A stretch of DNA of 64,000 bases from contig CAJOJG010000008.1 in NCBI GenBank assembly GCA_905234655.1, positions 2,205 to 66,204 of the forward strand, given 5' to 3'. Of this stretch, positions 48,122 through 64,000 are shown piece after piece. This DNA is from an uncultured Bacteroidales bacterium. GTDB taxonomy: Bacteria > Bacteroidota > Bacteroidia > Bacteroidales > UBA3824. Under the pieces are notes generated by a model. The model ran no database searches. It had not been told where the DNA came from and saw only the letters and a program-made list of their open reading frames with translations. The first letter of the stretch is position 1; each line of letters begins with the position of its first letter. The position numbers were made by a program, and so were the translations under genes.

Positions 48122-48240
48122 CTGTAGACTTTGTTTGGTATTCTTATGATTTGAAAACGCAAATTTAGCATTAATTTTGGAAAATTTCGCCCAATATTTA
48201 GTATATTTGCGCTGTTTTTTGATAAAACCACTACGCAAAT

Positions 48241-50157
48241 ATGAACAGCACATATCCACTGCTTGACCTTGTGAGCTATCCCGACGACTTGAAGAAGATT
48301 CCGAAGGAGAAGTTGCCGCAATTCTGTAACGAGTTGCGGCAGTATGTCATTGAGGTCATCAGCAAGCATCCAGGGCATTTTGCCGCGACGCTGGGCGTGG
48401 TGGAACTTACTGTGGCGTTGCATTATGTCTATAACACGCCATACGACCAGATTGTGTGGGACGTCGGACACCAGGCGTATGCCCACAAGATTCTTACCGG
48501 CCGTAAGGAAATGTTCAACACTCTCCGTAACTTGCACGGTCTCAGCCCGTTCCCGAACCGTGACGAGAGCGTGTACGATGCCTTTACCGTCGGACACGCC
48601 AGCACGTCAATATCGTCCGCGTTGGGGCTTGCAGTGGCGGCGAGCCAGCTCGGGCATGCCGACCAGCACGTTATCGCTGTGATTGGCGACGGCTCCATGA
48701 CCGGCGGAATGGCGTTTGAGGCACTTAACAATGCTGGAATCCAGCGTTCGGACTTGTTAGTGATTCTTAATGACAACCACATCGCCATCGACCAAAACCG
48801 TGGCGCGTTGAACGACTATCTCCTCGACATAACCACGTCGCGCACCTACAACCGTATTAAGAAGGAAGTTTGGGACACTTTGGGCAAGTTCGAGAGGCTC
48901 GGCCCAAGGGCGAGGAGCTTTATCTCAATGGTCGAGAGCGGCATCAAGCAGTCTGTCATGAAGCGCAGCAACCTTTTCGAGGGCATGGGATTCAGGTATT
49001 TCGGCCCGATAGACGGACATGACGTGACGCATCTCGCCGATGTGCTTACCGAGTTGCGCAACATACGCGGACCGAAGTTGTTGCATGTTTTGACGACGAA
49101 GGGCAAGGGCTATAAGTTCGCCGAGGAGAACCAGACCGAGTGGCACGCGACGAGTGTGGCGTTCGACATCGAGACTGGGCAAAAAGCCCCCACGCCAAAG
49201 CCCCAGGGCCCGAAATATCAGGATGTTTTTGGCATTACGGTCACGGAGCTGGCGCAGGAGAACCCTGACATTGTCGGTGTTACGCCGGCGATGCCTACGG
49301 GCTGTTCGTTGAACATCATGGCTGAGAAGTTCCCCGACCGTGTTTTTGACGTCGGCATTGCCGAGGAACACGCCGTGACATTCTCGGCGGGCATGGCTGC
49401 GCAGGGATTGTTGCCGTACTGCAATATTTATTCGACGTTCATGCAGCGCGCCTACGACCAGATAATCCATGATGTGTGCATTCCACGGCTCCATGTCGTG
49501 CTGTGCCTTGACAGGGCGGGGCTTGTCGGCGCGGACGGTGTGACTCACCAGGGCGCGTTCGACATTTCGTATCTCCGCCATATTCCAAACCTTGTCGTCG
49601 CCGCGCCGATGAATGAGATTGAACTCCGCAACATGCTCTACACGGCTCAACATGCCAAGTGTCCGTTTGCAATCCGCTATCCCCGTGGCAATGGGCATAA
49701 CTCCGACTGGCAAAAGCCTTTCGAGGAAATCGAGATTGGGCGCGGTCGCATGGTCGCTGACGGTGAGAAGGTGGCTATAATCTCCATCGGCACAATCGGT
49801 TATGAGGTCACGAAAGCCATCGGGCTGTTGTCCGGGCGCGGTATCCGTCCGGCGCATTATGACATGAGGTTCGTAAAGCCGCTCGACGAGGGTCTGATGC
49901 ACTGTATCTTGGCGAAGTTCGATAAGATTGTCACTGTCGAGGACAATGCCCTACAAGGCGGTTTTGGCAGCGCGTTGCTTGAGTTTTGCGCTGATAATGG
50001 CTATTATCCCAAAATAAAACGCCTCGGCATACCTGACCGCTTTATTGAGCATGGGACGCCACAAGACCTTTATAAACTTTGTGGCTATGATGCGGAGGCT
50101 ATTGCCGAGGCTGTAGAAAAGCTGACTTATCAGATTTCTCGCGAAGCGATAAAATGA
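48241..50157 (+). CDS. dxs: 1-deoxy-D-xylulose-5-phosphate synthase
   Basis: WDVGHQAYAHKILTGR, GHASTSIS, IGDGSMTGGMAFEALN, LNDN, DVGIAEEHA, YSTFMQRAYDQ, DRAGLVGADG.THQG, IRYPRG. Confidence 0.97.
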   Translation: MNSTYPLLDLVSYPDDLKKIPKEKLPQFCNELRQYVIEVISKHPGHFAATLGVVELTVALHYVYNTPYDQIVWDVGHQAYAHKILTGRKEMFNTLRNLHGLSPFPNRDESVYDAFTVGHASTSISSALGLAVAASQLGHADQHVIAVIGDGSMTGGMAFEALNNAGIQRSDLLVILNDNHIAIDQNRGALNDYLLDITTSRTYNRIKKEVWDTLGKFERLGPRARSFISMVESGIKQSVMKRSNLFEGMGFRYFGPIDGHDVTHLADVLTELRNIRGPKLLHVLTTKGKGYKFAEENQTEWHATSVAFDIETGQKAPTPKPQGPKYQDVFGITVTELAQENPDIVGVTPAMPTGCSLNIMAEKFPDRVFDVGIAEEHAVTFSAGMAAQGLLPYCNIYSTFMQRAYDQIIHDVCIPRLHVVLCLDRAGLVGADGVTHQGAFDISYLRHIPNLVVAAPMNEIELRNMLYTAQHAKCPFAIRYPRGNGHNSDWQKPFEEIEIGRGRMVADGEKVAIISIGTIGYEVTKAIGLLSGRGIRPAHYDMRFVKPLDEGLMHCILAKFDKIVTVEDNALQGGFGSALLEFCADNGYYPKIKRLGIPDRFIEHGTPQDLYKLCGYDAEAIAEAVEKLTYQISREAIK

Positions 50158-50160
50158 CTT

Positions 50161-52437
50161 TTATTCCAAAAATTCTTTCATCGTCTCGCTGTATACCGAG
50201 CCGTAGTTTTGTTGGTTGTAGAGGCTTACGTGCGAGCCTTTTGTGGTCTTGAAAAGTTCGCGGTATAGGTTGTAGACGGTGATGTCCGGGGATTGGTTAA
50301 TCTGGCGGCGGAAGGTGCGGGCAAAGGCGTTTGAGAGATATACGCCAAGCTTAGAGTCGTACATGTCGGCCTTTGAGGTTTCGGCCGGTGTGGCGGCGGT
50401 CAGAACGAGTACGTCGGACAAGCCGTCGAGTGCCTCGCCCCATTTGCCGCTGTAACAGGTCTCTACCGCAAAGAGAATCCGCCGGTACATGTCGTTGTCG
50501 TCCATCTCTTTGACGATGTTGCGAATCCGCTGTGAACCAAAATATTGACGCGCGTCCTCGTTGCCCCAGAGCGGACCGTCCTGGCTGCCGCCGTGTCCTG
50601 ACCAGAAGAACACTACGTCGCTGCCCGATGTTGGGCTGATGACGTGGGGCAGGCGGTCGCTCTTACGCCCAAGCATTATGTCGGCGATGTCGTCTTGGGT
50701 GAGGTCGCTGAAATGGTAATCGACTACGGCGTCAAGGCGGACGTTGTCGTTGGCGAATAGGTTGCTGGTGCTGCCATTGTCGTTGCGTTCTACAAAAATC
50801 TCGCCTGGGTAGATGTTGTGGCTGTCGTCGGCGAGGTTGTCTTCAACGATGAGGACTATGTGGTCGTCGTCGTAGCCGTGGCTGCGCAGGGTCTGGTACA
50901 TGGCGAATGCGTCGGCCTGGTGGCGGTAGTTGGCCCACGTGGTTGAGGGGCTGATTACCACTGCCCAACGGTCGGTGAGGGCGGGCAGGGCGTGGTTGAC
51001 GCTGATGTCGTCGATTTGCTGGTTCCAACGCTTGTCCATTTCCCAAACGAGCGACGTGGACGCTTGTCCAAAAGAGCCTGTTGTGCTGAGGTATGCCATT
51101 GGCCGGCATATACGATTGTTGTTGTCATCGTATGCGTAATCCCAAAACAAGTAGGTGGTGTTGAGGATTTTGGTGGAAGTCTCGCTGTCGAACTTGAGGT
51201 CGCCGGTGGCACCGATCAGGTCGATGTCGCGGCCTTCGAGAATTTCGGAGAAGGCGTATGTAAGACCATCGAGGGTGCATCCTGTCGTCTCCGAGCCATT
51301 TGGGGAAGACACGACGCTGCGGATATGGTCGGTAAGTCCGGGGCCAAAGGGTTTTTCGTTGTAGGAGACCTGGACACCGTTCACAAGGCATGTCTCGCCG
51401 TTGACAATTTGGTGCAACGCGCCGAGGGCTATCAGTTCAAGCGCGTCGTAAATCTGGGCGTAACCAATCTTCGGCATAGAGCCAAACTTAGATTCATACA
51501 TCTGTGGAAATCCGAATGTGGGCGAACCGTATGGCGTTATGCCGTGCGACAGGTGCACATTGTCGTTGCCGATGACGTCGTCGTCGAATGCAACGTCGGA
51601 GCCCATTATTTCGTAGTACATCCAATATTCGTAGTCGCCGTTGTATTCATGGTTCCAGTTTTTCAATTTGTCTGTAAAATCTTCATAGTAGCCGCCGTCG
51701 GAAAGCGCGAGGCATATCATCATGTCTTCGCCGCTGTTTTCGTAGTCGGCTTTTATTGAGTTTAAGAATGACGAGATGTCGGTGCTTTTTTTGTACGCCA
51801 ACATTCCGTCGCCGCATAATTTAAGCTGGTGTTCGGCGGCGTAGTAGCCAAACCAGTCGCGGAAGGACTGTCCGTATTCGTCGTCGCTGTATACGAGGGC
51901 GATTTTTTTGTGGTCGGTGCTTGCCGAGACGGACACCATCATTTCGCACTGCGTGACGTCGCTCTCTGTCAGGAACCATGCGAAAGTGCTTTTTGAATTT
52001 GTCCTTTGGAGTTCCGCGCCGGTGCAGGTGGGCATTATCACCGGCAGGCGGTTGCGGTCGGCGTATCGGAGAATCGTTTTTGCGTTTGAGGAGTGGTAGG
52101 GGCCGATTATGGCGTGGCAGGTGTCGTCGCCTTCCTCGGGGTGGGTGAGGGCGTATGCAAGCTTGTCGATGTCCTCGGTGTCCTCGTCGTGGTAGCGGAG
52201 GTTGAGGACGACTTTGCGGTCGAGGTTCCTCTGTGCGCCTGTTATGTTTTCCATCGCCCAGTCTATCGAGTTGGCCCACGCGGCTTGGATCGACTTGGGG
52301 AGTATCACGTCCACGTTGACGGTGGTTTCCTCGGCGGTTTGGACGGGGGCGGGGGAGGGGGTGTCGTCGTCGTTCTTACAGCCGTATAGTGCCATTATGA
52401 AGGCTGCAAGCAGTATGAGTATTTTATTTCGTTCCAT
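50161..52437 (-). CDS. Lipoprotein: type-I periplasmic-binding (Leu/ANF-receptor-like) domain fused to C13 legumain-like cysteine peptidase
   Basis: Lipobox LYG-C-KNDDD. PBP motifs AIIGPYHS, IALVYSDDEYGQS, AQIYDA, GATGDLKFD. C13 motifs WAVVI...WANYRHQADAFAMYQ, GYDDDHIVLI, catalytic SGHGG and ETCYSG. Confidence 0.85.
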   Translation of the reverse strand: MERNKILILLAAFIMALYGCKNDDDTPSPAPVQTAEETTVNVDVILPKSIQAAWANSIDWAMENITGAQRNLDRKVVLNLRYHDEDTEDIDKLAYALTHPEEGDDTCHAIIGPYHSSNAKTILRYADRNRLPVIMPTCTGAELQRTNSKSTFAWFLTESDVTQCEMMVSVSASTDHKKIALVYSDDEYGQSFRDWFGYYAAEHQLKLCGDGMLAYKKSTDISSFLNSIKADYENSGEDMMICLALSDGGYYEDFTDKLKNWNHEYNGDYEYWMYYEIMGSDVAFDDDVIGNDNVHLSHGITPYGSPTFGFPQMYESKFGSMPKIGYAQIYDALELIALGALHQIVNGETCLVNGVQVSYNEKPFGPGLTDHIRSVVSSPNGSETTGCTLDGLTYAFSEILEGRDIDLIGATGDLKFDSETSTKILNTTYLFWDYAYDDNNNRICRPMAYLSTTGSFGQASTSLVWEMDKRWNQQIDDISVNHALPALTDRWAVVISPSTTWANYRHQADAFAMYQTLRSHGYDDDHIVLIVEDNLADDSHNIYPGEIFVERNDNGSTSNLFANDNVRLDAVVDYHFSDLTQDDIADIMLGRKSDRLPHVISPTSGSDVVFFWSGHGGSQDGPLWGNEDARQYFGSQRIRNIVKEMDDNDMYRRILFAVETCYSGKWGEALDGLSDVLVLTAATPAETSKADMYDSKLGVYLSNAFARTFRRQINQSPDITVYNLYRELFKTTKGSHVSLYNQQNYGSVYSETMKEFLE

Positions 52438-53521
52438 TTAGTTGCGATATTTTGTAGTTGATTATCAGTGTGTCGATGTTGTTGGTGGTGTAGCCGTCCC
52501 AGTCGCCGTGGATTTCGTATGCGGGCATTTCGGACGGCTGGGTCTTGCACCATTTTTTGAGCCAGTTAGTCACCGCCAAGTCAAAGTGGCGGTTAATGCA
52601 GAAGTGTCCCGTCCGCCATGAGCCGTCGGTGTCGAGCATCACGGGCAGGAGCGTGTAATAGTCGTTGCGCCCCATGAGGCTGAATTTTGCCCCGCTGTTC
52701 GACGAGCCGAAGTCCAGTATGCTGAATATGTCGTATGGGTCTTTTTCGGCGCGGCTGAAAAGGCTTTCCGAGCATGTCTTGTAGGCTTCCTGGAACGTGT
52801 TGTATGAGAGTTCGGTGTTGTACAGTCCGCTTTCTTCGCTAAGGATGTGTTCGGCTGGCACGGGCTGGTTGAAGATTTCTTGGAGGGTTTCGGCGATGCT
52901 GTCGCGGTATAGGCCGGTCGCGTCGCCGTAAAGCCGGTATAGGCCGATGTTTTTCTTGTGGCCGGACTGTTTGCAGGTTTCGAGGAAGTCAGTGTAAACT
53001 TTTGCGTAGTAGCGGACTGAGCCGGCCGCTGAAATGTTGAGCCCGTAGACGGGGATTTTGTCGCCTAAGATTTGCGCGGCTTTCTTAATGTCGTCCTCGC
53101 TTGCCTTCAGGAGCAGGACTTCGTCGCCCTGTTTTAGCGAGCCGGTCAGCGTGGAGAACCACTTCGCCATGTAGAGTTCGGTCATTACGAGCAGGCGGCG
53201 GCTGAATGGCGTTCCGTCTTGCGCTACCGTGTATTCCTTCGCCCACCATAGTATCCATTCTTGCAGGGATTCGATGTCGTTTGCCGTTATGTAATCCAAG
53301 CGGATGTTTGCCGTGCTGTCGTTTTCGATGGCGTTTACGCCTTTTAGCACGAGGTCGGCGTATCCCATGTCGCCGAGTTGTCCGGGTGCGAATACGGTCA
53401 GTATGTTGACTTTCGGCGCGGCTTGCGTGTCGGGTTCGGTGGAAGCGTCGTCGTCCTTGTTGCAGGCGGCGAGTAGTAGTAGCGGAACTGCCACTACGAG
53501 CATGAGTTTCAGAATTTTCAT
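52424..53521 (-). CDS. Lipoprotein with degenerate BMP-like (basic membrane protein) solute-binding fold
   Basis: Lipobox LAA-C-NKDDD; APGQLGDMGYADLVLKG resembles the BMP N-terminal GLGD.SFND motif; overlaps the C13 gene start by 14 nt. Confidence 0.55.
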   Translation of the reverse strand: MKILKLMLVVAVPLLLLAACNKDDDASTEPDTQAAPKVNILTVFAPGQLGDMGYADLVLKGVNAIENDSTANIRLDYITANDIESLQEWILWWAKEYTVAQDGTPFSRRLLVMTELYMAKWFSTLTGSLKQGDEVLLLKASEDDIKKAAQILGDKIPVYGLNISAAGSVRYYAKVYTDFLETCKQSGHKKNIGLYRLYGDATGLYRDSIAETLQEIFNQPVPAEHILSEESGLYNTELSYNTFQEAYKTCSESLFSRAEKDPYDIFSILDFGSSNSGAKFSLMGRNDYYTLLPVMLDTDGSWRTGHFCINRHFDLAVTNWLKKWCKTQPSEMPAYEIHGDWDGYTTNNIDTLIINYKISQLNGTK

Positions 53522-53544
53522 ATATCGTGCTGTTTATGTGTAGT

Positions 53545-54795
53545 TTAGTTTTCCGCGTCCGTCAATGGTGAATATTCTATGGTCGTGCCGGAGATTTCCT
53601 GGTCGGCAAAGCGGATTACATTGATTGCGTAGAAATTGGTGCTGTTCCAGTCGCTGTCCTTGACATATTTCTGTTCGCCGGAGCAACATTGTCCGTCGCT
53701 TGTGCAGCCGTTCGGCACGAAGTAATAGGCGCAGTGGCGGTAGTCGTATGCCGGAATCCATGCGTATGAGCCGAACCATGCGTTATATATAATCCGTGCC
53801 CCTGTCGAGCCGGTGTACACCACGTTGGAGTTGTTGTTGAAGCCGCCCGGCATTACGTGCCACAGTTTGCCTGATTTTGTCGGTTTCTTTGTCATTTCGC
53901 CATTGAGGTATTGCTTGATTTTTTTTACCAGTGCTTTTTTTGTGGCGAGGAATCCGATGTAGATGGAACAGTCGAGGACAGAGGCTACGAATCCGTGGTC
54001 GTTGTTGTAGGGTTTCCAACAGCCCTGCTTGTCGCCGTCGAGGTTTATGGTCTCGTCGCCGCCCTTGTCGCCTTCGCACAGGTGGACGAGGAGTCCGTTC
54101 TTAGTACCGTTGGTACTCTGTGACACACATAGGTAGTAGCCGGTGCAATATTTCGGTGATGGCGGGTCGTAGAGCACAAGGTCGCCGACGCGGTACGGGG
54201 TGCCTGATGTCGAGGCATTGTCGCCCCATGCGCTTTCGGGGACAAAATCTATGCGTTCCAACGTCGGTATGCACTTCACGTCTACGTCAATGTATCCGAC
54301 TGATTGTGCGCCGTCGCCTTTGTGGAACGAGAGAGCGCCGAACGACACCTTGTCGCCGTTTGCCAAGAGGGGCATGTCTTTGAGCGTGATTTCCATGCCG
54401 TCGCTTGTGGCGGTCACGAGGGTGTCGGTGTTGACGATGCTGAGGAACATCTTCTGCGCGTCGTCGGCGGTCTCGCACTTTACAGACCTTACAAGCGGCT
54501 TCGCCTCGTCCCTCACCTCGCCGTATGTGGGCTGGTAGGACTTGTCGAGCGGGTTGCCGTTGATGTTGGAGAGGTCGAAGTCGGTGAGGTTAGAGAGGAT
54601 GTTCAATATCGCCTGCTGCTGGTCGAGTAGGTGCTGCTCGTCGTTTGTGAGGCTTGCGGGCGCAATCTTGCCGTCCTCGATTTCCACTCCGTTTTGGCCG
54701 GGTGTTGTGGTGTCGTCCTTGTCGTCGTCTTTGCAGGCGGTGGCCATCACCGCCACAATGGCCATAAGGCACAATAGTTTTGTCGATGTTTTCAT
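53545..54795 (-). CDS. Uncharacterised surface lipoprotein (paralog of 61040-63052 in N-terminal domain)
   Basis: Lipobox ATA-C-KDDDKDD; LERIDFVPESAWGDNAST..PYRVGDLV...YLCV aligns with the paralog; ATGA overlap with upstream MACPF gene. Confidence 0.8.
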   Translation of the reverse strand: MKTSTKLLCLMAIVAVMATACKDDDKDDTTTPGQNGVEIEDGKIAPASLTNDEQHLLDQQQAILNILSNLTDFDLSNINGNPLDKSYQPTYGEVRDEAKPLVRSVKCETADDAQKMFLSIVNTDTLVTATSDGMEITLKDMPLLANGDKVSFGALSFHKGDGAQSVGYIDVDVKCIPTLERIDFVPESAWGDNASTSGTPYRVGDLVLYDPPSPKYCTGYYLCVSQSTNGTKNGLLVHLCEGDKGGDETINLDGDKQGCWKPYNNDHGFVASVLDCSIYIGFLATKKALVKKIKQYLNGEMTKKPTKSGKLWHVMPGGFNNNSNVVYTGSTGARIIYNAWFGSYAWIPAYDYRHCAYYFVPNGCTSDGQCCSGEQKYVKDSDWNSTNFYAINVIRFADQEISGTTIEYSPLTDAEN

Positions 54796-57281
54796 GGTTT
54801 TAAATGTTTTTTTATTGTTGATAATGAAGGATAGTCGTACATATATCCGCGCACTGGGCGCAGTGTGTAGTAGTTTTTGCGCCAGGTGGTCGCGTAGCTT
54901 CCCGAGGTCGTATTGTCGCTGACGAGGTACATGTTGTAGTTTTTGTCCAAAACCATTATGCAGGCGTCGGCGACATTGCTTGAAGATTTTGACGGGATGA
55001 CGCTGACAGTGCCTTTATGGCGCAGTTTGTTGGTGTTGTCGCTGAAATACGCGTTGCCGTTCAATACGTCGGTTTGCCCGTAGTAGCCGTTGAACTCGGC
55101 GTTGAAGCCGGACATCTCGCCTTTGAACAGAGCCTTTGGGTTGAAGCCGAGAAATTTGTAGAGGCCTTGCACCTGCGCGGGTGTAGGCATGTACCACCGC
55201 AAGTTCGGATTGCCTTCGAAGAACGTGTTTGGCTTGTAGCCCCATGTCCATGAGTTGTATAACTTGAACTCGGAGGCGTTGTCGTACTGCGCGCGGACAT
55301 ACATCACGCCGTCATACATCTTTTCGTAATAATCCTCTTCGTCATATACGGTGAACATCATCTCGTGGTCGATGTCGTGGCGCGTCCAGAAGTTTGCGCC
55401 GATTTTGACGATTGGGTGGATGTGGAGCGGGTTGTCGTCGTTGTCCATGAAGAGAATCAGATTGTCGTCCATCACTGTGTGCGTGCGGTTTTTGAGGGCG
55501 TTGATGCCGTAGTTTTTGAGGGACAAGTTGCCGCCGATGTAGTAGATCCGCTTGAGTATCCTGTCCATCGGGAGCGAGTCGATTGGGTAGACGTATGAAT
55601 AGTCGTTGGAAAATCCCACTAAGGCGGGCTGGTTCTGCCCGTCGCCGATGAAAATGCCCTGGTTCATCTTGATTTTGTTGTCGTGGATCGGGTATATCAC
55701 CGTCACGCGGCGGTCTGTGCGGATTTTCGGGACATACTCGGAACATATTTGCACAATCGGCGCGTCGTCGATGTAGAGGATTTTGCAGAGGGTGCCGTCG
55801 TTGGTGAAGTCGGTGAGTTCCCTTTGCGTCAGGTCGATGTCGTATATGTCGATGTGGAGTTTTTCTGCGTCGAACTTGTTGTCGCTCTCGTCCACGAGCG
55901 CGAGGACGGCGTTGAGGTATATGTCGCGGAACTGCTGAGGCAGGAGTTCCCAAATCGGTATCAATTCGAAGTGCACCACGTCGAGGTTGTCGGTTATTTT
56001 CACCTCGGAGTTTGGTGCCGGGTTTATGGTGTTAGCCCAGCGGTTGATGTCGTCGAGGTTGAGTTGCGCGTGTGCGGAGAGTGTGTTTGTCGCGTTTTTG
56101 ATGATGTCGCGTTGGGTTTGGGCGCCGCCGCGGATTGTGATGGCTGATGTCGCGTTCTTGTCAGACGATGGCGTTGACTGGAACTCGGGGGTGCGGTCGT
56201 CGCGTTTCGTGCGGCCGAATGTGTAGTCGATTTCCTCGCGGAGTTCGGCGACAGAGTTTGTCGATGTCTGTTTTGCCATGGAGAAGGTGTAGTCCAGGCG
56301 TCCGCCGAGGTCGGTCTGGATGACGATGTGCGTGCCGTACTCGTTGATTATTTTGTTGACTGTGGCCAGTAGCGCGGACTTGTCGCTGGAGTTTCGTATG
56401 AGTTCTTCTACGCGGAGCGCGAAGTCCGCCGTCCATGGCATTTCGTCTTCTGCCTGGAGGTCGAGCAATGCGCCTCTGTCCATGGATTTCGAGGCGACGG
56501 TCTTGAGTATGCTGCCGCGTGCGAAGTTGTTTTCATGGATGTTGCCGGAGCATAGTTTTTCGACGGTCTTGCAGTCCTCGCGGCAGCCGTTTATGGAAAC
56601 TGAGGATTTTGTCTGCGAATTAGTGAGTTCTTCGGCAAATGCGTATATGCTTGTGCTGACGATGTATTTGCTTTCGGTGCGGGCGAGGCTGCAGTCTTGG
56701 ATTGGGTCGAATCCGAGGTAGCCGGTTTTTTCGCGCAGGCGGTCGAGGTCGATGATTGCTTTTGTCTTCTTGACCGACATGGGGCTTTCGTATGCCTTAA
56801 AAATGTCGTATCCGTAGCCGATGTAGCATACCGATTCGGCATCGCCGCCATTGCTGTCGCTGTCGTATGGGGACAGTTGGGTAAGTGGGATTGAGGCGGT
56901 TTTGGACGACGAGAGTGTCGTGGCGAAATTGAGGGTCGCGGTGCGGCGGCGGTCGTCGTTGTCGGTGGTCGTTATGCTGACTACATTATCGGGCGGTAGT
57001 GTGTCGGTATTGAGGGTGAACCAAGTGTCGCTGGTGGAGACGAGGATTTTGCCGTCGGTGGCGGGGTCGTAGCCTGTGAATGTAACTATAATGCGCTCGT
57101 ATGACGCCCGGGCGGCGAATATAACGTCGCCGTCGTCGTCTGCGCCGAGCGTCACTGCCACGGAAAAGTCGTCAGCAGACGGCATCGGGTCGGGCGTAGG
57201 GACGATGCTGTCGTCCTTGTCCTTGTGGCAGGCGGAGAGGACGAGGAGCGTCAGGATTGATATGTAGAGTAATCGTTTCAT
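54792..57281 (-). CDS. MACPF lipoprotein 3: BACON-like domain + MACPF + shared post-MACPF domain + FISUMP/Fib_succ_major-like C-terminus
   Basis: Start MKRLLY, lipobox LSA-C-HKDKDD; IGYGYD; signature EYGTHIVIQTDLGG; WAN...IPIWEL; C-terminal VKIGANFW...WYMPT...GF.AEFNGYY...LRPVR. Confidence 0.85.
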   Translation of the reverse strand: MKRLLYISILTLLVLSACHKDKDDSIVPTPDPMPSADDFSVAVTLGADDDGDVIFAARASYERIIVTFTGYDPATDGKILVSTSDTWFTLNTDTLPPDNVVSITTTDNDDRRRTATLNFATTLSSSKTASIPLTQLSPYDSDSNGGDAESVCYIGYGYDIFKAYESPMSVKKTKAIIDLDRLREKTGYLGFDPIQDCSLARTESKYIVSTSIYAFAEELTNSQTKSSVSINGCREDCKTVEKLCSGNIHENNFARGSILKTVASKSMDRGALLDLQAEDEMPWTADFALRVEELIRNSSDKSALLATVNKIINEYGTHIVIQTDLGGRLDYTFSMAKQTSTNSVAELREEIDYTFGRTKRDDRTPEFQSTPSSDKNATSAITIRGGAQTQRDIIKNATNTLSAHAQLNLDDINRWANTINPAPNSEVKITDNLDVVHFELIPIWELLPQQFRDIYLNAVLALVDESDNKFDAEKLHIDIYDIDLTQRELTDFTNDGTLCKILYIDDAPIVQICSEYVPKIRTDRRVTVIYPIHDNKIKMNQGIFIGDGQNQPALVGFSNDYSYVYPIDSLPMDRILKRIYYIGGNLSLKNYGINALKNRTHTVMDDNLILFMDNDDNPLHIHPIVKIGANFWTRHDIDHEMMFTVYDEEDYYEKMYDGVMYVRAQYDNASEFKLYNSWTWGYKPNTFFEGNPNLRWYMPTPAQVQGLYKFLGFNPKALFKGEMSGFNAEFNGYYGQTDVLNGNAYFSDNTNKLRHKGTVSVIPSKSSSNVADACIMVLDKNYNMYLVSDNTTSGSYATTWRKNYYTLRPVRGYMYDYPSLSTIKKHLKP

Positions 57282-57292
57282 GGCTAAGGGTT

Positions 57293-59041
57293 TTACTTCA
57301 ATTCGTTGGGGTTGAAGATATATACGTATGTTGAGTCGCGTTTCCACGACGATGAGCCGTTGTCGTATGTCCAGCCTACAATCGGCTTTTCTAACGACGA
57401 CGGCGCGTCGCATAGGAAGTCTTTGCCCGATTTGGTGACTGGGTATGGTGTCGACGAGTAGCCGCCGTCGGGCAGCACGCCGCCGCTGAGTTCGATGTAG
57501 GGGTATGCCGTCGATGGCGAATAGATTATGTCGTCGCGCTTGGTGAGTGTGATTTCGCCCGCGTTGACGTAGAATACAGATGTCTGAGGCACGTCCTCTG
57601 GGGCTAATTCCAATAGGTGGATGTTGCCGTTAATCCACCTGGCACGGTATGCAGTGCCGCTTGTGTCCACGCCGAGGCCGCAGGCGAGGTTTATGACTCC
57701 TTCGTAAATTGGGTATGCGATGGCGAGGTCTAAGCTGTCTATGGTCTCGTGGCATACTGTGGCGACGTACTTGCCGTTTGCGACGATGTTGACTACCGAT
57801 GGGCTGGTTTCTGTGTATGTTTTCCACTCGCCGGTGCTGTGGCGGTACTGGCAGGAGATTTGGGGGTAGTTGACGCTGAACGATGTGCTGAAGAATGTGC
57901 GGTCGCCGAGGAGCGACTGCAGGATGGCGGCGTCTTGGAGTATGGCGGCCTTTACACGTATGGCGACTTCTTCGTCAAGCGGCTCTATGAAACGCCAGAT
58001 GGGCGTTACCTGCATGTTGATGAGTTCCACGTTGGATGCCGCCTCGTTGTCTGGGTCGTATACGAGCGACTGTGTCCAGTGGTCGATAGCGTCGAGGTTG
58101 ATGTCCCGTGAGCCGTCGTACTTGGTGGCGCCGAGTATGTTGCTTAGTGTCGACTGGTCGCCGCCGACGGCGGAGATTTCGACGCGGCTGTTGTCGAGAA
58201 ATTTGAAGAGGGCGGAGTTTTTGCGCTTTTCTTCTCTGTCGGAGTATGCGAATAGGAAGTCTTGCTGCGACCATTCTTCTTCGCTGGCGTCGTCGGAAAA
58301 ACGCCATACATCGTTGTGGATGTCTATTTTTAGTGTTCCGCCAAGCGATGCGTTGGTGATTACGTGTGTTCCATAGACGTTGATGAACGAATCGACGACG
58401 GCGAAGTTTTCCTGTTCTGTGTCGGCGATGTGATAGACGGCGTTTATGAAACTTGTGGTGAGCAACTCTAAGTCGCCGTCGTCGATGGCGGTGATTATGT
58501 TGTCTTCTTCCAGATGCTGATTGCCGAGTTCGCGGTAGTCGTTCCGGACATAGTATATTTTTTGTTGTACGCCGTTTTCTATTACGTATTGTGTCTTGCG
58601 GAATTTGCCGTTGTAGAGGCCGAGGTTGATTTCCTTCTTGGAGTCTATGGTTACGTTGGCCACGTAGTCACGCAGTGAGTAGTAGAAGTTGAATGTCGAT
58701 GAGACTTGTTCCATCTGGTATGAGTGGAAGAGTTTATAAGAGTTGTCTTTCTCGTACTTGCGCAACTCCGAGCGGCTTACGACTTGGCATCTGATGTCTT
58801 TCCAGTTGCAGTATTCCCCCCGTACCGCGTTGTATGAATATCCCACGCCGAAAGTCTTGATGAAGGAGTTTCGCGTGGAGAGGTCTTTCGAGCGCACCCA
58901 TCGGAAGGCTGTGGTGTCGTCGTCGGTTTCGGACACGGATGCTTGCTGTGTGGCTTGAGAAAGCAAGCCGGCATCCTTGTCGCAGGCGGCGAGGGCGAGC
59001 GACAGGGCGATGAGTGATGGTAAGATGCTTATCGTTTTCAT
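57293..59041 (-). CDS. MACPF lipoprotein 2 (short tether, MACPF + post-MACPF domain)
   Basis: Lipobox LAA-C-DKD; GVGYSYN; signature FINVYGTHVITNASLGG; AVGG, W..SL, TPIWRF. Confidence 0.88.
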   Translation of the reverse strand: MKTISILPSLIALSLALAACDKDAGLLSQATQQASVSETDDDTTAFRWVRSKDLSTRNSFIKTFGVGYSYNAVRGEYCNWKDIRCQVVSRSELRKYEKDNSYKLFHSYQMEQVSSTFNFYYSLRDYVANVTIDSKKEINLGLYNGKFRKTQYVIENGVQQKIYYVRNDYRELGNQHLEEDNIITAIDDGDLELLTTSFINAVYHIADTEQENFAVVDSFINVYGTHVITNASLGGTLKIDIHNDVWRFSDDASEEEWSQQDFLFAYSDREEKRKNSALFKFLDNSRVEISAVGGDQSTLSNILGATKYDGSRDINLDAIDHWTQSLVYDPDNEAASNVELINMQVTPIWRFIEPLDEEVAIRVKAAILQDAAILQSLLGDRTFFSTSFSVNYPQISCQYRHSTGEWKTYTETSPSVVNIVANGKYVATVCHETIDSLDLAIAYPIYEGVINLACGLGVDTSGTAYRARWINGNIHLLELAPEDVPQTSVFYVNAGEITLTKRDDIIYSPSTAYPYIELSGGVLPDGGYSSTPYPVTKSGKDFLCDAPSSLEKPIVGWTYDNGSSSWKRDSTYVYIFNPNELK

Positions 59042-59082
59042 TTGTTATTCAGTTTTTATGGTCTGTATATGAGAGCGTCATG

Positions 59083-59242
59083 TTAAAAAAAACTGACAAA
59101 ACGGAACGCTGAAGAAGTCTTGATAGAAAACAAACCACCAGGTTGATATGGTGTAAACAAACAAAGTTAATATACACATTTTCCACGAGGGAAGTCGCGG
59201 AAAATGTGGTATATTTGTCCGTTTTGTCAGTAATTTTTTTAA
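59083..59242 (-). ncRNA. Candidate intercistronic structured RNA / attenuator (multibranch stem)
   Basis: 14-bp perfect outer stem 59092-59105/59218-59231, inner long hairpin about 59170-59214 with a G-U pair only on the - strand, and a U-tract after the outer stem on the - strand. Confidence 0.45.
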
Positions 59243-59287
59243 AAGAGCGTATTAGAATGTGGGCGGGAGAGCAGTCCGCGTTCTGGA

Positions 59288-61021
59288 TTATTCGTCCACA
59301 AACTCGGCTGCGTTGAGGATGTCTTCGACTGACACTTTGTTGCCGGCTGCGATTCCGAGGTAGGTGAGTATGCCGCTGTCCTTGTATTTAAGAATGAAGT
59401 ATTGGCGTGCGTATTCCTGGGTGTATTCGTCGGTGAAGAGGTTCCATATCGGGGTGATGGTGAACGAGATAGGCATTGCTTTGCTTGTCTGGAAGTCGTT
59501 TGATTCCATTGAGCTTACCCATCCTTTGAGGAAGTTCTGTATCTTGGAGTAGTCGTTTGGATTTTTGCTCGTCAAGAGACTGAAGACGCTGTCTGCCACT
59601 TCATTGGCGTTCCCTCCGTAAATCTCGAGGTCGAGTTTCATGTTGTGGAGTATCGTCGAGCCTTTGTCAGAGTATTGCACAGAACCTTGTATGTCCACCA
59701 TGCTCATTATGTCTGCGCCGAGCGATGCGCCGACGCGGGTTTCGCCTTCCAGGTCGTCGTTGTCCACCATCATGTGCATGTTGATGGAGCCGCCCCAGTT
59801 GCCGCCGGAGATGTAGAATGGTCCGTATCCGTCGTCCAGCTGTGCGAGGATTTGGTTTGCGGTTGCGTATTTCTCGTTGTTGACAGCCTCGTAGAGTTTG
59901 AAGTATTTGTCGGCGAAGCCCACGGAGAATACGCCGCCGTATGTGGGCTTTTCGATTTTCTTGTATGCCGCGTCAATCTTCTTTTGCTGCGCTTTGGTGA
60001 GTGTGGAGTCGCCCTTGTTTTTGGGGTTTCTTGCGTTGGCGATTTTGTAGTTGAGTATTTGTTGGTCGATGGCGGCATACTTCTCCTCCATATCTTCAAA
60101 TTCCGCTTCTGAGGCTTCTTCGGCGTATGCCTTGATTACGTCTTCGGAGATGTATGCGTGGTACATCGGCGCGGAACGTTGGATGAAGTAGTCCACGTAT
60201 GTCCTGTTTTCCTTTTTGTCGCCGAAGTAGTCGGCTTTGGCCTGAATTTCGAGGAATCCGAGCGAGACGTTTACCTCGATAGACGCGGCGATTTTCTTGT
60301 CCTGAGTGAGGCATGAGTCGAGGAGCGACACTTCGAGTTTGGAGACTTCCAATGGATCCTCTATGTATGCGTTCTGCTCGATTTTACCATCTTTTACGAG
60401 TTTTTCGATAGCATCGAGGTTGAATACGCAGTTGCCCTTGAAGATTTTTGTGAGGTCGAATTTTTCCTTGTCCTTCTCTTCCATTTCGCCGTTTGCAATC
60501 TTTGCGTCCTGGAGTACGCGGCGTTTCTTGTTTTCCTTTGTGTTGAGCACGTAGTCGTAGTCCGCGCCGTGTCCGAGACCTTTGCCGGCGAATGCCTGTG
60601 CGCTGTTTGCGTCGCTGCCGCGCTGTGAGACGGGGACTTCCATTATCTCGTCGTCGCCGTCCTTGGAGATGTAGATGACGGTCGAGCGGGAGGCGGCGGA
60701 GTAGTTGGGGTCGATGGTTATGACGACGGTCTTGTTGCCGTCGTACTCTACATCGTTGTCGTCGATGGCCGCCCAGTCGCAGTCGGCGTCGATTGCTGCT
60801 GACCATTTGCCGGTGGCGGTTACGGGCAGGGAGTACGACTTGGCGTCGTAGGCTACTTCGATGCCCTTGTTGACGAGGTTCTCGTCGAGGTTGAGCTCGA
60901 CTACGGGGGTGTCGGGCGTTGTGCCGCTGTCCTTCGGGTCGTCGTCGTCCTTGCACGAGGGAAGGGCGAGTGTCGTCGCCAGCATGAGGGCGAGGACGGG
61001 GATTAGTGAATTTTTTTTCAT
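59288..61021 (-). CDS. MACPF lipoprotein 1: BACON-like domain + divergent MACPF, no C-terminal accessory domain
   Basis: Lipobox LPS-C-KDDDD; BACON-like W...CDW...DPN..ASRS...VSQ; GLGHG; variant signature GYGPFYISGGNWGG; IYGG, WVSSM, TPIWNLF. Confidence 0.72.
   Translation of the reverse strand: MKKNSLIPVLALMLATTLALPSCKDDDDPKDSGTTPDTPVVELNLDENLVNKGIEVAYDAKSYSLPVTATGKWSAAIDADCDWAAIDDNDVEYDGNKTVVITIDPNYSAASRSTVIYISKDGDDEIMEVPVSQRGSDANSAQAFAGKGLGHGADYDYVLNTKENKKRRVLQDAKIANGEMEEKDKEKFDLTKIFKGNCVFNLDAIEKLVKDGKIEQNAYIEDPLEVSKLEVSLLDSCLTQDKKIAASIEVNVSLGFLEIQAKADYFGDKKENRTYVDYFIQRSAPMYHAYISEDVIKAYAEEASEAEFEDMEEKYAAIDQQILNYKIANARNPKNKGDSTLTKAQQKKIDAAYKKIEKPTYGGVFSVGFADKYFKLYEAVNNEKYATANQILAQLDDGYGPFYISGGNWGGSINMHMMVDNDDLEGETRVGASLGADIMSMVDIQGSVQYSDKGSTILHNMKLDLEIYGGNANEVADSVFSLLTSKNPNDYSKIQNFLKGWVSSMESNDFQTSKAMPISFTITPIWNLFTDEYTQEYARQYFILKYKDSGILTYLGIAAGNKVSVEDILNAAEFVDE
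60908..61003. repeat. 96-bp perfect direct repeat, copy 1 (signal peptide/lipobox coding region)
   Basis: Identical base-for-base to 62939-63034; encodes IPVLALMLATTLALPSCKDDDDPKDSGTTPDT. Confidence 0.95.
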
Positions 61022-61039
61022 GATTGTTGTTGTTAATTA

Positions 61040-63052
61040 TTAATTATTGGTTGTTATGTTTTGGAATGCCATGAAGGGTCGGACGGGGCGTTCGTCGGTT
61101 GCCTTGACCGTTTCGAAGTCCAGGCTGCCGCCGAATGACATGCCAGCGGTCGAGATTTTAACTCTGATTGGCGTGTAGGTATTGCCGTCTTTCCATAGAG
61201 TACTTGTCCAGAAAGTGATGGTCTCCAAGTCGCCCTTGTCGTAGGATGGGTCTATTGCACGGAACATATTGTGGTAATATTTTGTGATGTAGCCCATTCT
61301 GGTTAGTTCAACGTTCGTGTATATAAATGCCGCTGTTTCTGCTTCATAGAAAAGAGTATTTGGGAACGTTTTTAGAACGTCGCTTGCCGATGGCAAAAAC
61401 CATTGAGTGGTGTCTTGGTCGAAGGCTTGGTAAGCCCAACATTTGATGGCGGCTTCGCTGTTGCCTACTGTACTGTTGGCGAGCCTTCTGCCGTCTGTAG
61501 AACCACTTGATGCGGCTTTGATTTTTTCTAAGTCGGTAACGTCTGTTATTGTCGATACACCAAATTTAGATACGGCTTCTTCGTCCGACCAAGAATCTGG
61601 ATCCAATTCATCGAGTGCCATAGCGAGGTTTTTGCCGCCTATATCGTCAACGTAAACTACGAGTCCGAGTGGGTTGGTGTTGTCGTTTTTGGCGTCGGCG
61701 ATGGTCTTGTAGAATTTTCTGTTTGCGCCGATTACGGAGCCTACAGTGGGCGTGGCCGAGACTGTGATGTCTTTAGCTGCTTGTTGTACTTCGGAGGTGA
61801 GGAGTACGTCGTCAGTGGCGAATGATGCCCGCTTGTCCGGCGCGCCGGTGTATTCCTTGTAGCGGACTGCGACTGCAAATATAGGGCCGATGGTACAATT
61901 GTTTCCGGCGAAGCCGGTCTCTATGTAGTCATTGATGTCGAACTTTGCGTTAGCCATTTTCCATTTGCGTTCGCTTGCCTGCGTGGTGGAGAGGCTGACG
62001 CCGCTGAAAGTGGCCGTCCAGAGTGTCATCGTAACGCCGAATGAGGAGTAGCCGTTGTAGAAAAATGTGAGGGTTTTGTTTTTGGCTTGGGTGCTGAAGT
62101 AGCCCTTCCCGATGGAGCCGGTTACCATGCCCCAAATGTCCCTTTTGTCCCAAAGATTGGCGAGAGCCTTAATATAATCGGGTGTGTAGAGGTCGTTGTC
62201 GAGGTCGCAGAGCCCGTGTTTGCGAACGCCGCCCGTGAACCAGTTGTCCGTGTAGTTGTCGGGGTCGACAAGGACACCGAGGAGCTCGGCGAAGTAGGTG
62301 AGGTTCTCGACGCTGTTGCCGAGTTTTGTTGGTACGACGTGTTTGCCGCGTGAGGATGTCGCCTTGTATGTCTTGAAGTTGTCTGTGGTCATCTGGAGGC
62401 TTACCCAGTGGGAGTGCTTTTTGCCTTTGTTCGCATTCGCGGGGCGTACGCAGACCCAGTAGCAGTTGTCCTTGTCCTTCACGACGTCGCCGTACTCGTA
62501 GTATGGGGTGAATGTAGATGCGTTTTCGCCGAGCTGTGCGGCGGTCACGAAGTTGATTTTCTCGAGCTGGAGCTGCGGGATTTGGATGCTGATTGTGGCG
62601 AATGGGTTGTCTCCGCCTACGGAGAGGGACATCGTTCCTATTCCGTCGTAGTTCCATGAGCCTGATGTGGCTGTCGTGTCGAGGTTCTGTCCTGTGAGGG
62701 AGTTCCATCGTGCGATGACTTGCGCTGCGGTCTCGGCGGCTACGGTCTTTGTCAGCGCGCCGTCTTCGCCGTCCTTGTCGCCGATTGTGGCGGCGAAGGA
62801 TGCTGTCGCCCAGTCGTCGGGCAGGGAGTCGACGCCGGATACTTGGTTGAGGATTCCGTAGAGGGTCATCGCTTTCTCTGTGGCCTTGCCATACGGGTCG
62901 AGGGCCTTGTCTTCGGCGGAGATTTCTTCTGTGCCGGTGGTGTCGGGCGTTGTGCCGCTGTCCTTCGGGTCGTCGTCGTCCTTGCACGAGGGAAGGGCGA
63001 GTGTCGTCGCCAGCATGAGGGCGAGGACGGGGATGAGTTTTGATGTATTCAT
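61040..63052 (-). CDS. Uncharacterised surface lipoprotein with C-terminal DUF1566/C-type-lectin-fold-like domain
   Basis: Lipobox LPS-C-KDDDD; LEKINFV...LGENAST.TPYYEYGDVV...YWVCVRP; C-terminal GLVVYV...LAMAL...WFLPS...FWTST...VRPFMAF. Confidence 0.75.
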   Translation of the reverse strand: MNTSKLIPVLALMLATTLALPSCKDDDDPKDSGTTPDTTGTEEISAEDKALDPYGKATEKAMTLYGILNQVSGVDSLPDDWATASFAATIGDKDGEDGALTKTVAAETAAQVIARWNSLTGQNLDTTATSGSWNYDGIGTMSLSVGGDNPFATISIQIPQLQLEKINFVTAAQLGENASTFTPYYEYGDVVKDKDNCYWVCVRPANANKGKKHSHWVSLQMTTDNFKTYKATSSRGKHVVPTKLGNSVENLTYFAELLGVLVDPDNYTDNWFTGGVRKHGLCDLDNDLYTPDYIKALANLWDKRDIWGMVTGSIGKGYFSTQAKNKTLTFFYNGYSSFGVTMTLWTATFSGVSLSTTQASERKWKMANAKFDINDYIETGFAGNNCTIGPIFAVAVRYKEYTGAPDKRASFATDDVLLTSEVQQAAKDITVSATPTVGSVIGANRKFYKTIADAKNDNTNPLGLVVYVDDIGGKNLAMALDELDPDSWSDEEAVSKFGVSTITDVTDLEKIKAASSGSTDGRRLANSTVGNSEAAIKCWAYQAFDQDTTQWFLPSASDVLKTFPNTLFYEAETAAFIYTNVELTRMGYITKYYHNMFRAIDPSYDKGDLETITFWTSTLWKDGNTYTPIRVKISTAGMSFGGSLDFETVKATDERPVRPFMAFQNITTNN
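62939..63034. repeat. 96-bp perfect direct repeat, copy 2
   Basis: Identical to 60908-61003, 2031 bp apart, same reading frame relative to each ATG. Confidence 0.95.
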
Positions 63053-63126: not shown

Positions 63127-63999
63127 TTATTTCCACGCCTCTTGCCATGTGGGATGTGAGAAGAGTTTGCCGTCCCAATAGTTGGTTTGTTGATGGCAAC
63201 TGGACCATTCTCCATCCAAGCCTGAGTATGCTGCTTTCACAATGTCAGGAAATTCTGGGTCTTCATCTGCGCCTACATTTACATATGCATCAAGCTGACT
63301 TACGAGGGTGAGGGTGTGTCCGTCAACGGTTTTGGTCGAGTAGCCATGTACGCCACGGTCATATACCGCCGTAACGCGGAACATCAGCACCGGCTCCTGC
63401 CACATATCGGTCGGGTGTTGGTCAGTGTCCCACTTGTTCCACTTGTCGTAGTCGTAGAAATAGTTGGAAATAGTAGTCGCCTGTTTGTCGGGTTTTGAGC
63501 GGAATTTGCGGGTGTTTCCGTTAACGTACCCTTTATATAGCGGCTGATTCGAGTAGAAGTCGGGGGCGTAGGCCTCTACTTTCTGTTCTTGGGCGACATC
63601 TTGCAGATAGATTGGGGCAGTGCTGTATTGTGTCTCCGTGTATGCCTCCGATTTCACGTCGGGTTCGGTTACATAATGCTGCCAATAATATACCGGCGGC
63701 TCTGCATTGCTTAAGTCGATGGGAAACAAGTAACGCAAGAGGGGTTGTCCGTTTGAGGTGGAATTCTTGTCGGGGTCGGAATATGCTATTGTAGCAAGGC
63801 TCGTGGGGTTGCGAGAATCTTTGCTCTTAGCTACTACCGTTTGGTACAATGTGGTGAGGTCCACTCCGGTATGCTCGAAGATATGGGCGGCTATCTTACT
63901 AAAATAACCTCGTCCGTTTAATCCCGCAGCTGAGGTATTCTCCCATATATTGTGGAGGAAAAGATTTGCCCTGACTGTCTGTTGGAGGGTGCCGAGGTT
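63127..63999 (-). CDS. Uncharacterised protein, 3' part only (5' end beyond window); probably another member of the lipoprotein cluster
   Basis: The frame of ORF 63127-63864 remains open to the window edge (NLGTLQQTVRANLFLHNIW...); same strand as the cluster. Confidence 0.7.
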   Translation of the reverse strand, partial: NLGTLQQTVRANLFLHNIWENTSAAGLNGRGYFSKIAAHIFEHTGVDLTTLYQTVVAKSKDSRNPTSLATIAYSDPDKNSTSNGQPLLRYLFPIDLSNAEPPVYYWQHYVTEPDVKSEAYTETQYSTAPIYLQDVAQEQKVEAYAPDFYSNQPLYKGYVNGNTRKFRSKPDKQATTISNYFYDYDKWNKWDTDQHPTDMWQEPVLMFRVTAVYDRGVHGYSTKTVDGHTLTLVSQLDAYVNVGADEDPEFPDIVKAAYSGLDGEWSSCHQQTNYWDGKLFSHPTWQEAWK

Positions 64000-64000
64000 G

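Follow-up and report, generated by a model that had tools for sequence, protein, structure and literature searches.

A legumain-like C13 protease encoded with Asn-linker lipoproteins in rumen Bacteroidales, a candidate counterpart of Arg/C11 toxin activation

According to a recent preprint, the lipoprotein MACPF toxin BSAP-1 must be cut at an N-terminal arginine, R38, by the C11 protease fragipain, and this cut takes place on the target cell. The same text describes that cutting frees the toxin from vesicles and sets off pore formation, that the site is conserved among BSAPs, that BSAP-3 and BcpT are processed by the C11 enzyme DpnB, and that Fab1 is processed by fragipain (bioRxiv 10.64898/2026.08.05.742979). 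Here we describe a cluster of seven minus-strand genes at positions 50161–63052 of a 64,000-nucleotide (nt) stretch of contig CAJOJG010000008.1 from an uncultured Bacteroidales bacterium (assembly GCA_905234655.1); this whole stretch is called the window. The cluster encodes three MACPF lipoproteins (MACPF1 to MACPF3), two lipoproteins of a separate family (parA and parB), a lipoprotein of 365 amino acids (aa) named lip365, and a 758-aa fusion of a type-I periplasmic-binding protein (PBP) domain with a legumain-like C13 peptidase. Our reading, held with slightly more confidence than doubt, is that the co-encoded C13 enzyme cleaves after an invariant linker Asn in MACPF1, MACPF3, parA, and parB, which would make the system an Asn/C13 counterpart of the Arg/C11 (fragipain) activation of BSAPs. 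To our knowledge, protease licensing of Bacteroidales toxins has so far been known only for Arg-specific C11 enzymes. We found no paper that links legumain or C13 enzymes with fragipain, MACPF proteins, or Bacteroidales toxins, subscription journals being outside the search.

A sequence-only reading of the window had proposed that an Asn followed by a small residue separates the N-terminal part of five cluster lipoproteins from the effector part, and that the C13 enzyme releases all five from their lipid anchors, or activates them, at this residue. The five motifs lie at the residues claimed, and their codons were checked: DSDSN144-GG in MACPF3, LSTRN58-SF in MACPF2, GSDAN139-SA in MACPF1, GEN177-AST in parA, and GDN193-AST in parB. 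In one genome such motifs are weak evidence, because Asn makes up 5%–7% of the residues in the cluster proteins and Asn-small dipeptides are frequent; conservation lifts them above chance. The linker Asn proves to be conserved far above background in MACPF1, MACPF3, parA, and parB. It is not in MACPF2, so the proposal of a common release mechanism keeps both site and C13-linkage evidence for four proteins and loses the fifth.

Pfam recognizes a MACPF domain in three cluster proteins (MACPF3, E 1.8e-11; MACPF2, E 9.3e-08). Their scores of 45.1, 32.9, and 21.7 bits all exceed the cut-off of 21.5, the last of them, that of MACPF1, barely so. In a profile of MACPF3 orthologs, the YGtHvviqvDlGGr segment aligns with perforin-1 (E 5.4e-05), and we take Y-G-T-H...G-G to be the MACPF signature. 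A BACON-like tether was said to precede the site, and this is borne out by the Pfam BACON domain ahead of the MACPF domain in MACPF1 (E 7.1e-06) and by the beta-sandwich modeled in MACPF3 (residues in Table 1).

The Asn of MACPF3 is found in all 20 rows that cover the site in a 21-row ortholog alignment, the remaining row being a fragment. Q135, S137, and D140 of this linker are likewise invariant, and the residues between them vary. MACPF1 has Asn in only one of 20 rows at the window's own alignment column, and the residue seemed unconserved there because of a one-residue indel. When rows are anchored on the first MACPF motif instead, Asn lies at −9 to −12 in all 17 motif-bearing rows, mostly within P-T-N-G-S-G; this count leaves out two truncated rows and one locus (L015) that the motif pattern missed. 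Across 124 island sequences, the residue that follows the Asn (P1′) is Gly in 61, Ala in 46, Asp in nine, and Ser in eight.

parA and parB are only weakly homologous to each other (28% identity over 156 residues, E 9e-06), and their best-conserved block is the one around the G[DE]N-AST motif. Neither protein has a match in Pfam or NCBIfam, nor does lip365. Judged by sequence profiles, parA and parB are members of a new family of lipoproteins with about 1000 clusters, which we call parN. Its layout consists of a lipobox, a tether, a conserved N-domain of ∼150 residues, the Asn at residues 152–200, a loop of variable length, a small module with the pattern [YP]Y..GD[VI]...YW[IV]CV ("GDVV...WxCV"), and variable C-termini. 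The junction motif reads Q-x-[GP]-[DE]-N-[GA], and length-variable insertions begin directly after the Asn. N193 of parB is present in 42 of 42 neighbors and N177 of parA in 45 of 47, the misses being one fragment and one misaligned row. Only five columns are invariant in a 32-sequence parN alignment with a mean identity of 28% (C21, G92, G153, N193, and G204), and N193 is the sole polar residue among them besides the lipobox Cys. It is also the only one of the 26 Asn residues of parB that is conserved above 45%.

Against 1.84 billion representatives of 50%-identity clusters, the parN profile gave 996 matches at E ≤ 0.001; 721 of these also pass E ≤ 1e-10, and 474 pass E ≤ 1e-30. The Asn is present without exception in the 150 best representatives, at residue 152–182. 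The domain is always N-terminal in these proteins, which range from 211 to 1051 aa and have a lipobox-like start in 141 cases; the residue after the Asn is Gly in 86, Ala in 46, Ser in six, Thr in four, and another residue in eight. A parN-seeded metagenome scan yielded 76 loci with 197 unique parN open reading frames (ORFs), 192 of which hold the Asn. The five misses are three fragments and two ORFs in which the Asn is shifted by 2–3 residues. The small module, as [AY]YY.xGDVV...W[IF]CV, is repeated near residue 460–515 in 28 of the best 150 representatives (members of ∼800 aa, P0121–P0155). It is therefore an independent unit, and the Asn lies at a true domain boundary. N-A-S-T was also considered as an N-glycosylation sequon, and this candidate was rejected since the +2 residue is not Ser or Thr in the orthologs.

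AlphaFold2 models based on ortholog alignments have a mean predicted local distance difference test (pLDDT) value of 75.7 for parB and 77.6 for MACPF3. They agree with the expectation that the Asn is located in a loop. In parB, pLDDT falls below 50 at residues 1–46 (the tether), 193–197, and 244–254, and in MACPF3 at 1–36, 141–145, 464–476, 644–650, and 687–690. The Asn opens (parB) or sits within (MACPF3) a short low-confidence loop with confidently modeled elements on both sides. This loop is presumably flexible, and an invariant residue in an otherwise variable, flexible loop suggests recognition rather than packing. Foldseek found no fold match in the PDB for the parB model at E ≤ 0.001; the Atlas look-alikes (BACON, Big_2, and DUF1566) score 0.86 or less and are leads only. 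Prediction of a complex between the C13 domain (470–758) and parB (47–416) gave disagreeing runs, with scores of 0.07, 0.55, and 0.01 relative to a mark of 0.32.

The linker-Asn families were also expected to co-occur with the C13 gene, and they do so from whichever side the search is started. A profile of 14 PBP-C13 homologs led to 42 loci in species genomes, nearly all labeled as rumen Prevotella or Bacteroidales metagenome-assembled genomes (MAGs). The gene order MACPF1-MACPF3-parB-MACPF2-lip365-C13, or a variant of it, recurs among these loci; parN is present in 36, MACPF in 29, and either one in 37. Conversely, 15 of the 24 parN-seeded metagenome loci of at least 15 kb hold a C13 gene, and three more share a contig with a C13-holding locus. 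Among the 25 genomes of the window's genus, the PBP-C13 fusion is found in eight, full-length parN in four (G000, G406, G408, and G414), and MACPF3 in three, and every genome with parN or MACPF3 is among the eight with the fusion. The parN tally for the genus is nine if five genomes are included that match only profile positions 1–80, corresponding to the signal peptide and tether, and these were excluded. In an evenly drawn set of 401 genomes of the order, the fusion is found in six and MACPF in 19; MACPF is present in three of the six fusion genomes versus 16 of the 395 others, absences being soft because only 2–7 candidates per genome were scored. In another family, genome G134 carries MACPF, MACPF, lip365-like, and C13 genes side by side, and its MACPF occurs in one of the 29 genomes of that family, G134 alone. 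One complete Bacteroidales-type island (L049) is in a MAG labeled Oribacterium sp., a Firmicute, which is probably a binning error rather than gene transfer.

As a control, we used 22 MACPFs that have a recognizable first-strand motif and come from genomes where the fusion was not found. None of the 22 has N-[GSA] at positions −13 to −8 before the first MACPF strand; nine have some Asn there. By the same criterion, the island clades give 17 of 17 for MACPF1 and 20 of 20 for MACPF3. Five of the control genomes, which are 99%–100% complete, have no PF01650 match at all.

The 758-aa protein is a member of the C13 family by its match to PF01650 (E 1.9e-40; 139.5 bits versus a cut-off of 22.8; residues 490–746), and it also matches PF01094 (E 3.3e-13). 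At E ≤ 0.001 it matches 36 C13 sequences in the PDB, and its C13 domain aligns with legumain (4noj, E 2.3e-22) and PIGK (9ub7_C, E 3e-21). H615 (wsgHGgs) falls on the His of legumain ftdHGat and C661 (vetCysg) on the Cys of ieaCesg. Together with N503, R505, H506, E659, and S688, these two residues occupy conserved legumain positions and are invariant in the 14 homologs. The protein ends just after the peptidase domain and has no C-terminal prodomain. A review lists Arg44, His45, Ser216, and Asp231 as the S1 residues of legumain (PMC4357240), and R505, H506, and S688 match the first three; the fourth position holds Asn. The co-encoded gene has the intact catalytic residues and three of the four listed S1 residues, and Asn specificity of this bacterial C13 protein is plausible from these alignments.

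The gene for lip365 is present in 35 of the 42 C13-seeded loci, and some loci have two or three lip365-C13 pairs in tandem. An Atlas feature score of 0.93 and TM-scores of 0.63–0.68 to BMP-family clusters provide a lead toward a Bmp/PnrA-like periplasmic-binding-protein fold; lip365 has no match in Pfam, including Bmp/PnrA (PF02608), even at E ≤ 5. Because lip365 and the N-terminal half of the C13 protein both look like solute-binding proteins, a ligand-gated or scaffolded protease is suggested. A role for the PBP domain and lip365 in regulation or substrate docking is speculation.

All seven cluster proteins have a lipoprotein signal in which the Cys is followed by an acidic stretch, for example K-D-D-D. 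Such a stretch after the lipobox Cys is a surface-export signal in Bacteroidota. The island would comprise three MACPF pore-former-like and two parN surface lipoproteins plus a dedicated maturation module made of lip365 and PBP-C13. We propose that the surface-exposed C13 enzyme cuts after the linker Asn, with Gly, Ala, or Ser as the P1′ residue. Such a cut would free the C-terminal effector portions of MACPF1, MACPF3, parA, and parB from their lipid-bearing N-terminal domains, and in the MACPFs it would probably lift an N-terminal autoinhibition as well. The predicted new N-termini are A194 of parB, A178 of parA, G145 of MACPF3, and S140 of MACPF1.

The residue preceding the cut (P1) is Asn or Asp for C13 enzymes and Arg or Lys for C11 and C25 enzymes. 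A BACON-MACPF-Fib_succ (PF09603) family of roughly 400 proteins is made up of relatives of the G134 MACPF, and its linker column was counted in the 174 motif-bearing of 180 sequences. Asn is found there in 144 (118 of them N-A), Thr in 12, Gly in seven, and Asp in six; Gln, Met, Lys, Glu, and a gap occur once each. Four of the Thr rows read T-R-A-D, and when they are compared ungapped the Arg takes the position of the Asn (...E-N-A-D versus ...T-R-A-D). Two further rows read CLTR-GAGG, and one close pair has ...P-T-N-A-D versus ...P-A-K-A-D. The sequences with Arg or Lys in place of the linker Asn are P0324, P0325, P0346, P0347, P0349, P0350, and P0353. As judged from the linkers, these swaps fit a processing site at which the P1 residue changes with the protease that is used. 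A broader form of this idea is a "P1 code," in which Asn versus Arg/Lys in the linker decides which clan-CD protease licenses the toxin. A co-encoded module of Bmp-like protein and PBP-C13 legumain would then mature Asn-type parN proteins, as polymorphic lipoprotein effectors, and BACON-MACPFs, and the solute-binding-type domains might gate the protease by ligand. We offer this wider scheme only tentatively; under it, a bacterial legumain would for the first time have a physiological role and substrates.

Several observations weigh against cleavage by the C13 enzyme after the linker Asn. The orthologs are kin, so that the conservation counts are non-independent, and N58 of MACPF2 is kept in only two of 19 orthologs, contrary to what had been claimed for it. 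Five of the 42 C13 loci have neither parN nor MACPF, and several genomes in which neither parN nor MACPF was found (G244, G269, G362, G416, and G418) carry the C13 fusion; the enzyme must thus act on other substrates or have other roles. C13 is missing from the contig in five of the 24 large parN-seeded loci, and one locus, L142, has 10 kb on either side without it. In parN the Asn is never lost, so that its loss could not be paired with a loss of C13. Absences in the sample of 401 genomes of the order are soft because only 2–7 candidates per genome were scored. parN was found in one of the 401, the window's own genome, and the order search therefore gave no C13-free parN for comparison. Two C13-free genomes (G006 and G355) encode BACON-like-MACPF proteins with Q-[DE]-A-N-P, in which Asn at −10 or −11 is followed by Pro.

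The enzyme itself also gives reason for caution. The position of legumain Asp231 is occupied by N703, which is invariant in the family. The C13 family also includes the broader glycosylphosphatidylinositol (GPI) transamidase, and the S1 pocket of its PIGK subunit accepts Ser, Gly, Asn, Ala, Asp, and Cys (PMC10491789). For these two reasons Asn specificity is not assured. The Arg, Lys, and Asp variants among the relatives were assessed by linker sequence. We infer the Asn specificity of the enzyme, its cutting at these sites, and the effect of the cut from such comparisons.

Some of these points would be accommodated if the Asn were kept for a reason other than the C13 enzyme. The residue could be a hinge, turn, or contact at the domain junction, and PBP-C13 could process peptides or nutrients at the cell surface or mature other proteins. 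Asn-Gly favors tight turns. The loci and genomes that have the fusion without parN or MACPF, the resemblance of lip365 and of the N-terminal domain of the C13 protein to solute-binding proteins, and the Asn-Pro sequences at a similar distance before the MACPF domain in two C13-free genomes are all in line with such a role. A structural Asn would be expected in a confident turn, however, yet pLDDT falls below 50 exactly at the site in both models, and the loop after the Asn varies in length. Moreover, proteins with BACON-like and with parN N-domains, which are unrelated, both show the feature and have only the C13 neighbor in common, and relatives swap in Arg, Lys, or Asp, which are clan-CD P1 residues. 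We regard a non-proteolytic Asn as rather unlikely.

MACPF2 is the odd one out among the five lipoproteins. In its 19 orthologs the R57 column, which is at a BSAP-like position, is Arg in 12, His in six, and Tyr in one, and an invariant Arg or Lys stands three residues ahead of the first MACPF strand. Seventeen of the 19 have an Asn two residues before that strand; this alternative C13 site was rejected, since Thr takes its place in the window protein and the residue that follows is bulky. The alignments indicate that MACPF2 is probably not a C13 substrate at N58 and resembles the Arg-type BSAPs. The same genome has a gene for a C11 clostripain-family peptidase (PF03415, E 2.4e-22) on another contig (C30:3981–4565, L070), and this enzyme could serve MACPF2.

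These features raise the question of whether the linkers in general are cut by some other protease, such as a C11 enzyme of the producer or target or the proteases of the rumen, with Asn not being the P1 residue. Apart from MACPF2, for which cleavage after R57 would be the favored form of this explanation, we consider it improbable. It draws on the C11 peptidase of the window's genome, on the C11 processing of BSAP-1, BSAP-3, BcpT, and Fab1 cited above, and on the Arg-rich column and invariant Arg/Lys of MACPF2. Further, the lipoprotein MACPFs of two C13-free genomes (G132 and G376) have R-SAGD ∼10 residues before the first strand, a layout that would be expected of Arg-type BSAPs. The MACPF of genome G020 is also of this type and does not adjoin the C13 gene of that genome. 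In contrast, no Arg or Lys is conserved around the Asn in the ortholog alignments of the MACPF1, MACPF3, and parN linkers, and the tight linkage is to C13, not to C11. Even in MACPF2, the R57 column holds His or Tyr in seven of the 19 orthologs.

Least probable is a protease-free function of the Asn, by succinimide self-cleavage or as a deamidation timer of the sort known for Asn-Gly in certain viral capsid proteins, autotransporters, and inteins. In its favor, Asn is chemically most labile when Gly or Ala follows it in a flexible loop, and 115 of 124 sequences have Gly, Ala, or Ser at P1′. Against it, N193 has no second invariant polar residue with which it could make up a catalytic set, unrelated folds have the site, the Arg or Lys of relatives cannot cyclize, and the C13 linkage is left unexplained.

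The features of the cluster are listed in Table 1. Along the cluster the genes are ordered parA, MACPF1, MACPF2, MACPF3, parB, lip365, and PBP-C13, with intergenic gaps of 18, 246, 11, −4, 23, and −14 nt. The seven genes form an operon-like accessory island of rumen Prevotella-like Bacteroidales, which looks to have spread horizontally, given its presence in one of 29 genomes of the G134 family.

Table 1. Coordinates of the cluster features in the window
Feature	Position	Strand	Description
parA	61040..63052	−	670-aa lipoprotein of the parN family; conserved N-domain, N177 (codon 62522-62524), variable C-terminal part
MACPF1	59288..61021	−	577-aa lipoprotein; BACON (75-133), linker N139 (codon 60605-60607), MACPF domain
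MACPF2	57293..59041	−	582-aa lipoprotein with short tether; N58 codon 58868-58870, R57 codon 58871-58873
MACPF3	54792..57281	−	829-aa lipoprotein (start MKRLLY at 57281); N144 codon 56850-56852
MACPF3 domains			Ig/BACON-like beta-sandwich 40-135, flexible linker with N144 (as modeled), MACPF domain, C-terminal domains
parB	53545..54795	−	416-aa lipoprotein of the parN family; N193 (codon 54217-54219) opens the presumably flexible loop
lip365	52424..53521	−	365-aa lipoprotein; directly upstream of the C13 gene, 14-nt overlap
PBP-C13 fusion	50161..52437	−	758-aa lipoprotein; N-terminal type-I PBP (ANF_receptor/Peripla_BP_6), C-terminal C13 legumain-like peptidase
PBP-C13 catalytic residues	50593-50595 (H615); 50455-50457 (C661)	−	catalytic His and Cys

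Pfam searches at E ≤ 5 with the C-terminal parts of parA, parB, MACPF2, and MACPF3 produced no usable match. The relatives P0272–P0333 have PF09603 (Fib_succ_major/TIGR02145) downstream of the MACPF domain, and the C-terminal part of MACPF3 (window 54792–55900) has a stretch, W-Y-M-P-T-P...L-Y-K-F-L-G, that is like this domain and has no Pfam match of its own at E ≤ 5. This PF09603-like stretch may be a receptor-binding part. Upstream of parA, an ORF of at least 556 aa (window 63127–64000 and beyond) runs off the end of the contig. It has a GDVY...RWFVV segment that resembles the small module after the Asn of parN proteins, and it may be a sixth substrate-type gene.

On the other side of the cluster, beyond the C13 gene and on the opposite strand, a 638-aa ORF at 48241–50157 has a translation that by eye resembles 1-deoxy-D-xylulose-5-phosphate synthase. 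A Cys-rich ORF on the minus strand (47141–48259), overlapping the start of the 638-aa ORF, looks by eye like a radical SAM enzyme. Elsewhere in the same genome, there is a second lip365-C13 pair with a parN-like gene on contig C98 (loci L002, L003, L009, and L061 on C98/C33/C115), a C13 fragment on contig C115, and, at the end of contig C33, further parA paralogs with 75% identity to parA over residues 8–428.

If the favored reading is correct, an Asn/C13 route would be a second maturation chemistry for Bacteroidales toxins, and bacterial legumains would gain a function and defined substrates. The large new lipoprotein family would be defined together with an exact predicted cleavage site, and it would be suggested that producer- versus target-encoded activation can be read from a single linker residue.

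Among known systems, polymorphic toxins combine a conserved N-terminal part and a junction motif (VENN in CdiA) with variable C-termini. The parN proteins resemble them in their shared N-domain, junction motif, variable C-termini, and arrays of up to nine paralogs. Such tandem arrays, with six to nine parN paralogs that differ in the C-terminal part, were seen in the metagenome loci L115, L119, L135, and L147. They recall the cassettes of polymorphic effectors; neither a toxin domain nor an immunity gene was identified in them. Unlike polymorphic toxins, parN proteins are lipoproteins rather than cargo of type V or type VI secretion systems or Rhs proteins, and we propose that a separate protease cuts at their junction.

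The legumains of animals and plants share with the island enzyme the PF01650 fold, the catalytic His and Cys, the N-Y-R-H-Q-A-D segment, and the S1 Ser. The island enzyme differs in being bacterial, lipidated, surface-directed, and fused to an N-terminal PBP domain, and in having no C-terminal LSAM prodomain and Asn in place of Asp231. The GPI transamidase PIGK (GPI8) is matched at a similar level, and it acts in a complex, as the constant lip365 neighbor might suggest for the island enzyme. In contrast, PIGK moves the N-terminal part of a protein onto a GPI anchor and uses several small omega residues (PMC10491789). Transfer of the transamidase type would have no evident purpose for the island proteins because their N-terminal part is already lipidated.

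The closest likeness is to the BSAPs, compared by architecture. Both systems consist of surface MACPF lipoproteins with one conserved site N-terminal to the MACPF domain and a lipidated clan-CD cysteine protease. MACPF1 to MACPF3 have the lipobox Cys, acidic stretch, and Pfam domain of a BSAP-type lipoprotein, but not the conserved Arg/C11 site: MACPF1 and MACPF3 have a conserved Asn where BSAPs have Arg, and MACPF2 has Arg in 12 of 19 orthologs. The island has a second, non-MACPF family of candidate substrates, and its MACPFs would lose a BACON-like domain and not a short peptide. Finally, the protease of the island is a C13 enzyme encoded within the cluster by the producer, whereas BSAP-1 is cut by the chromosomal C11 enzyme of the target cell.

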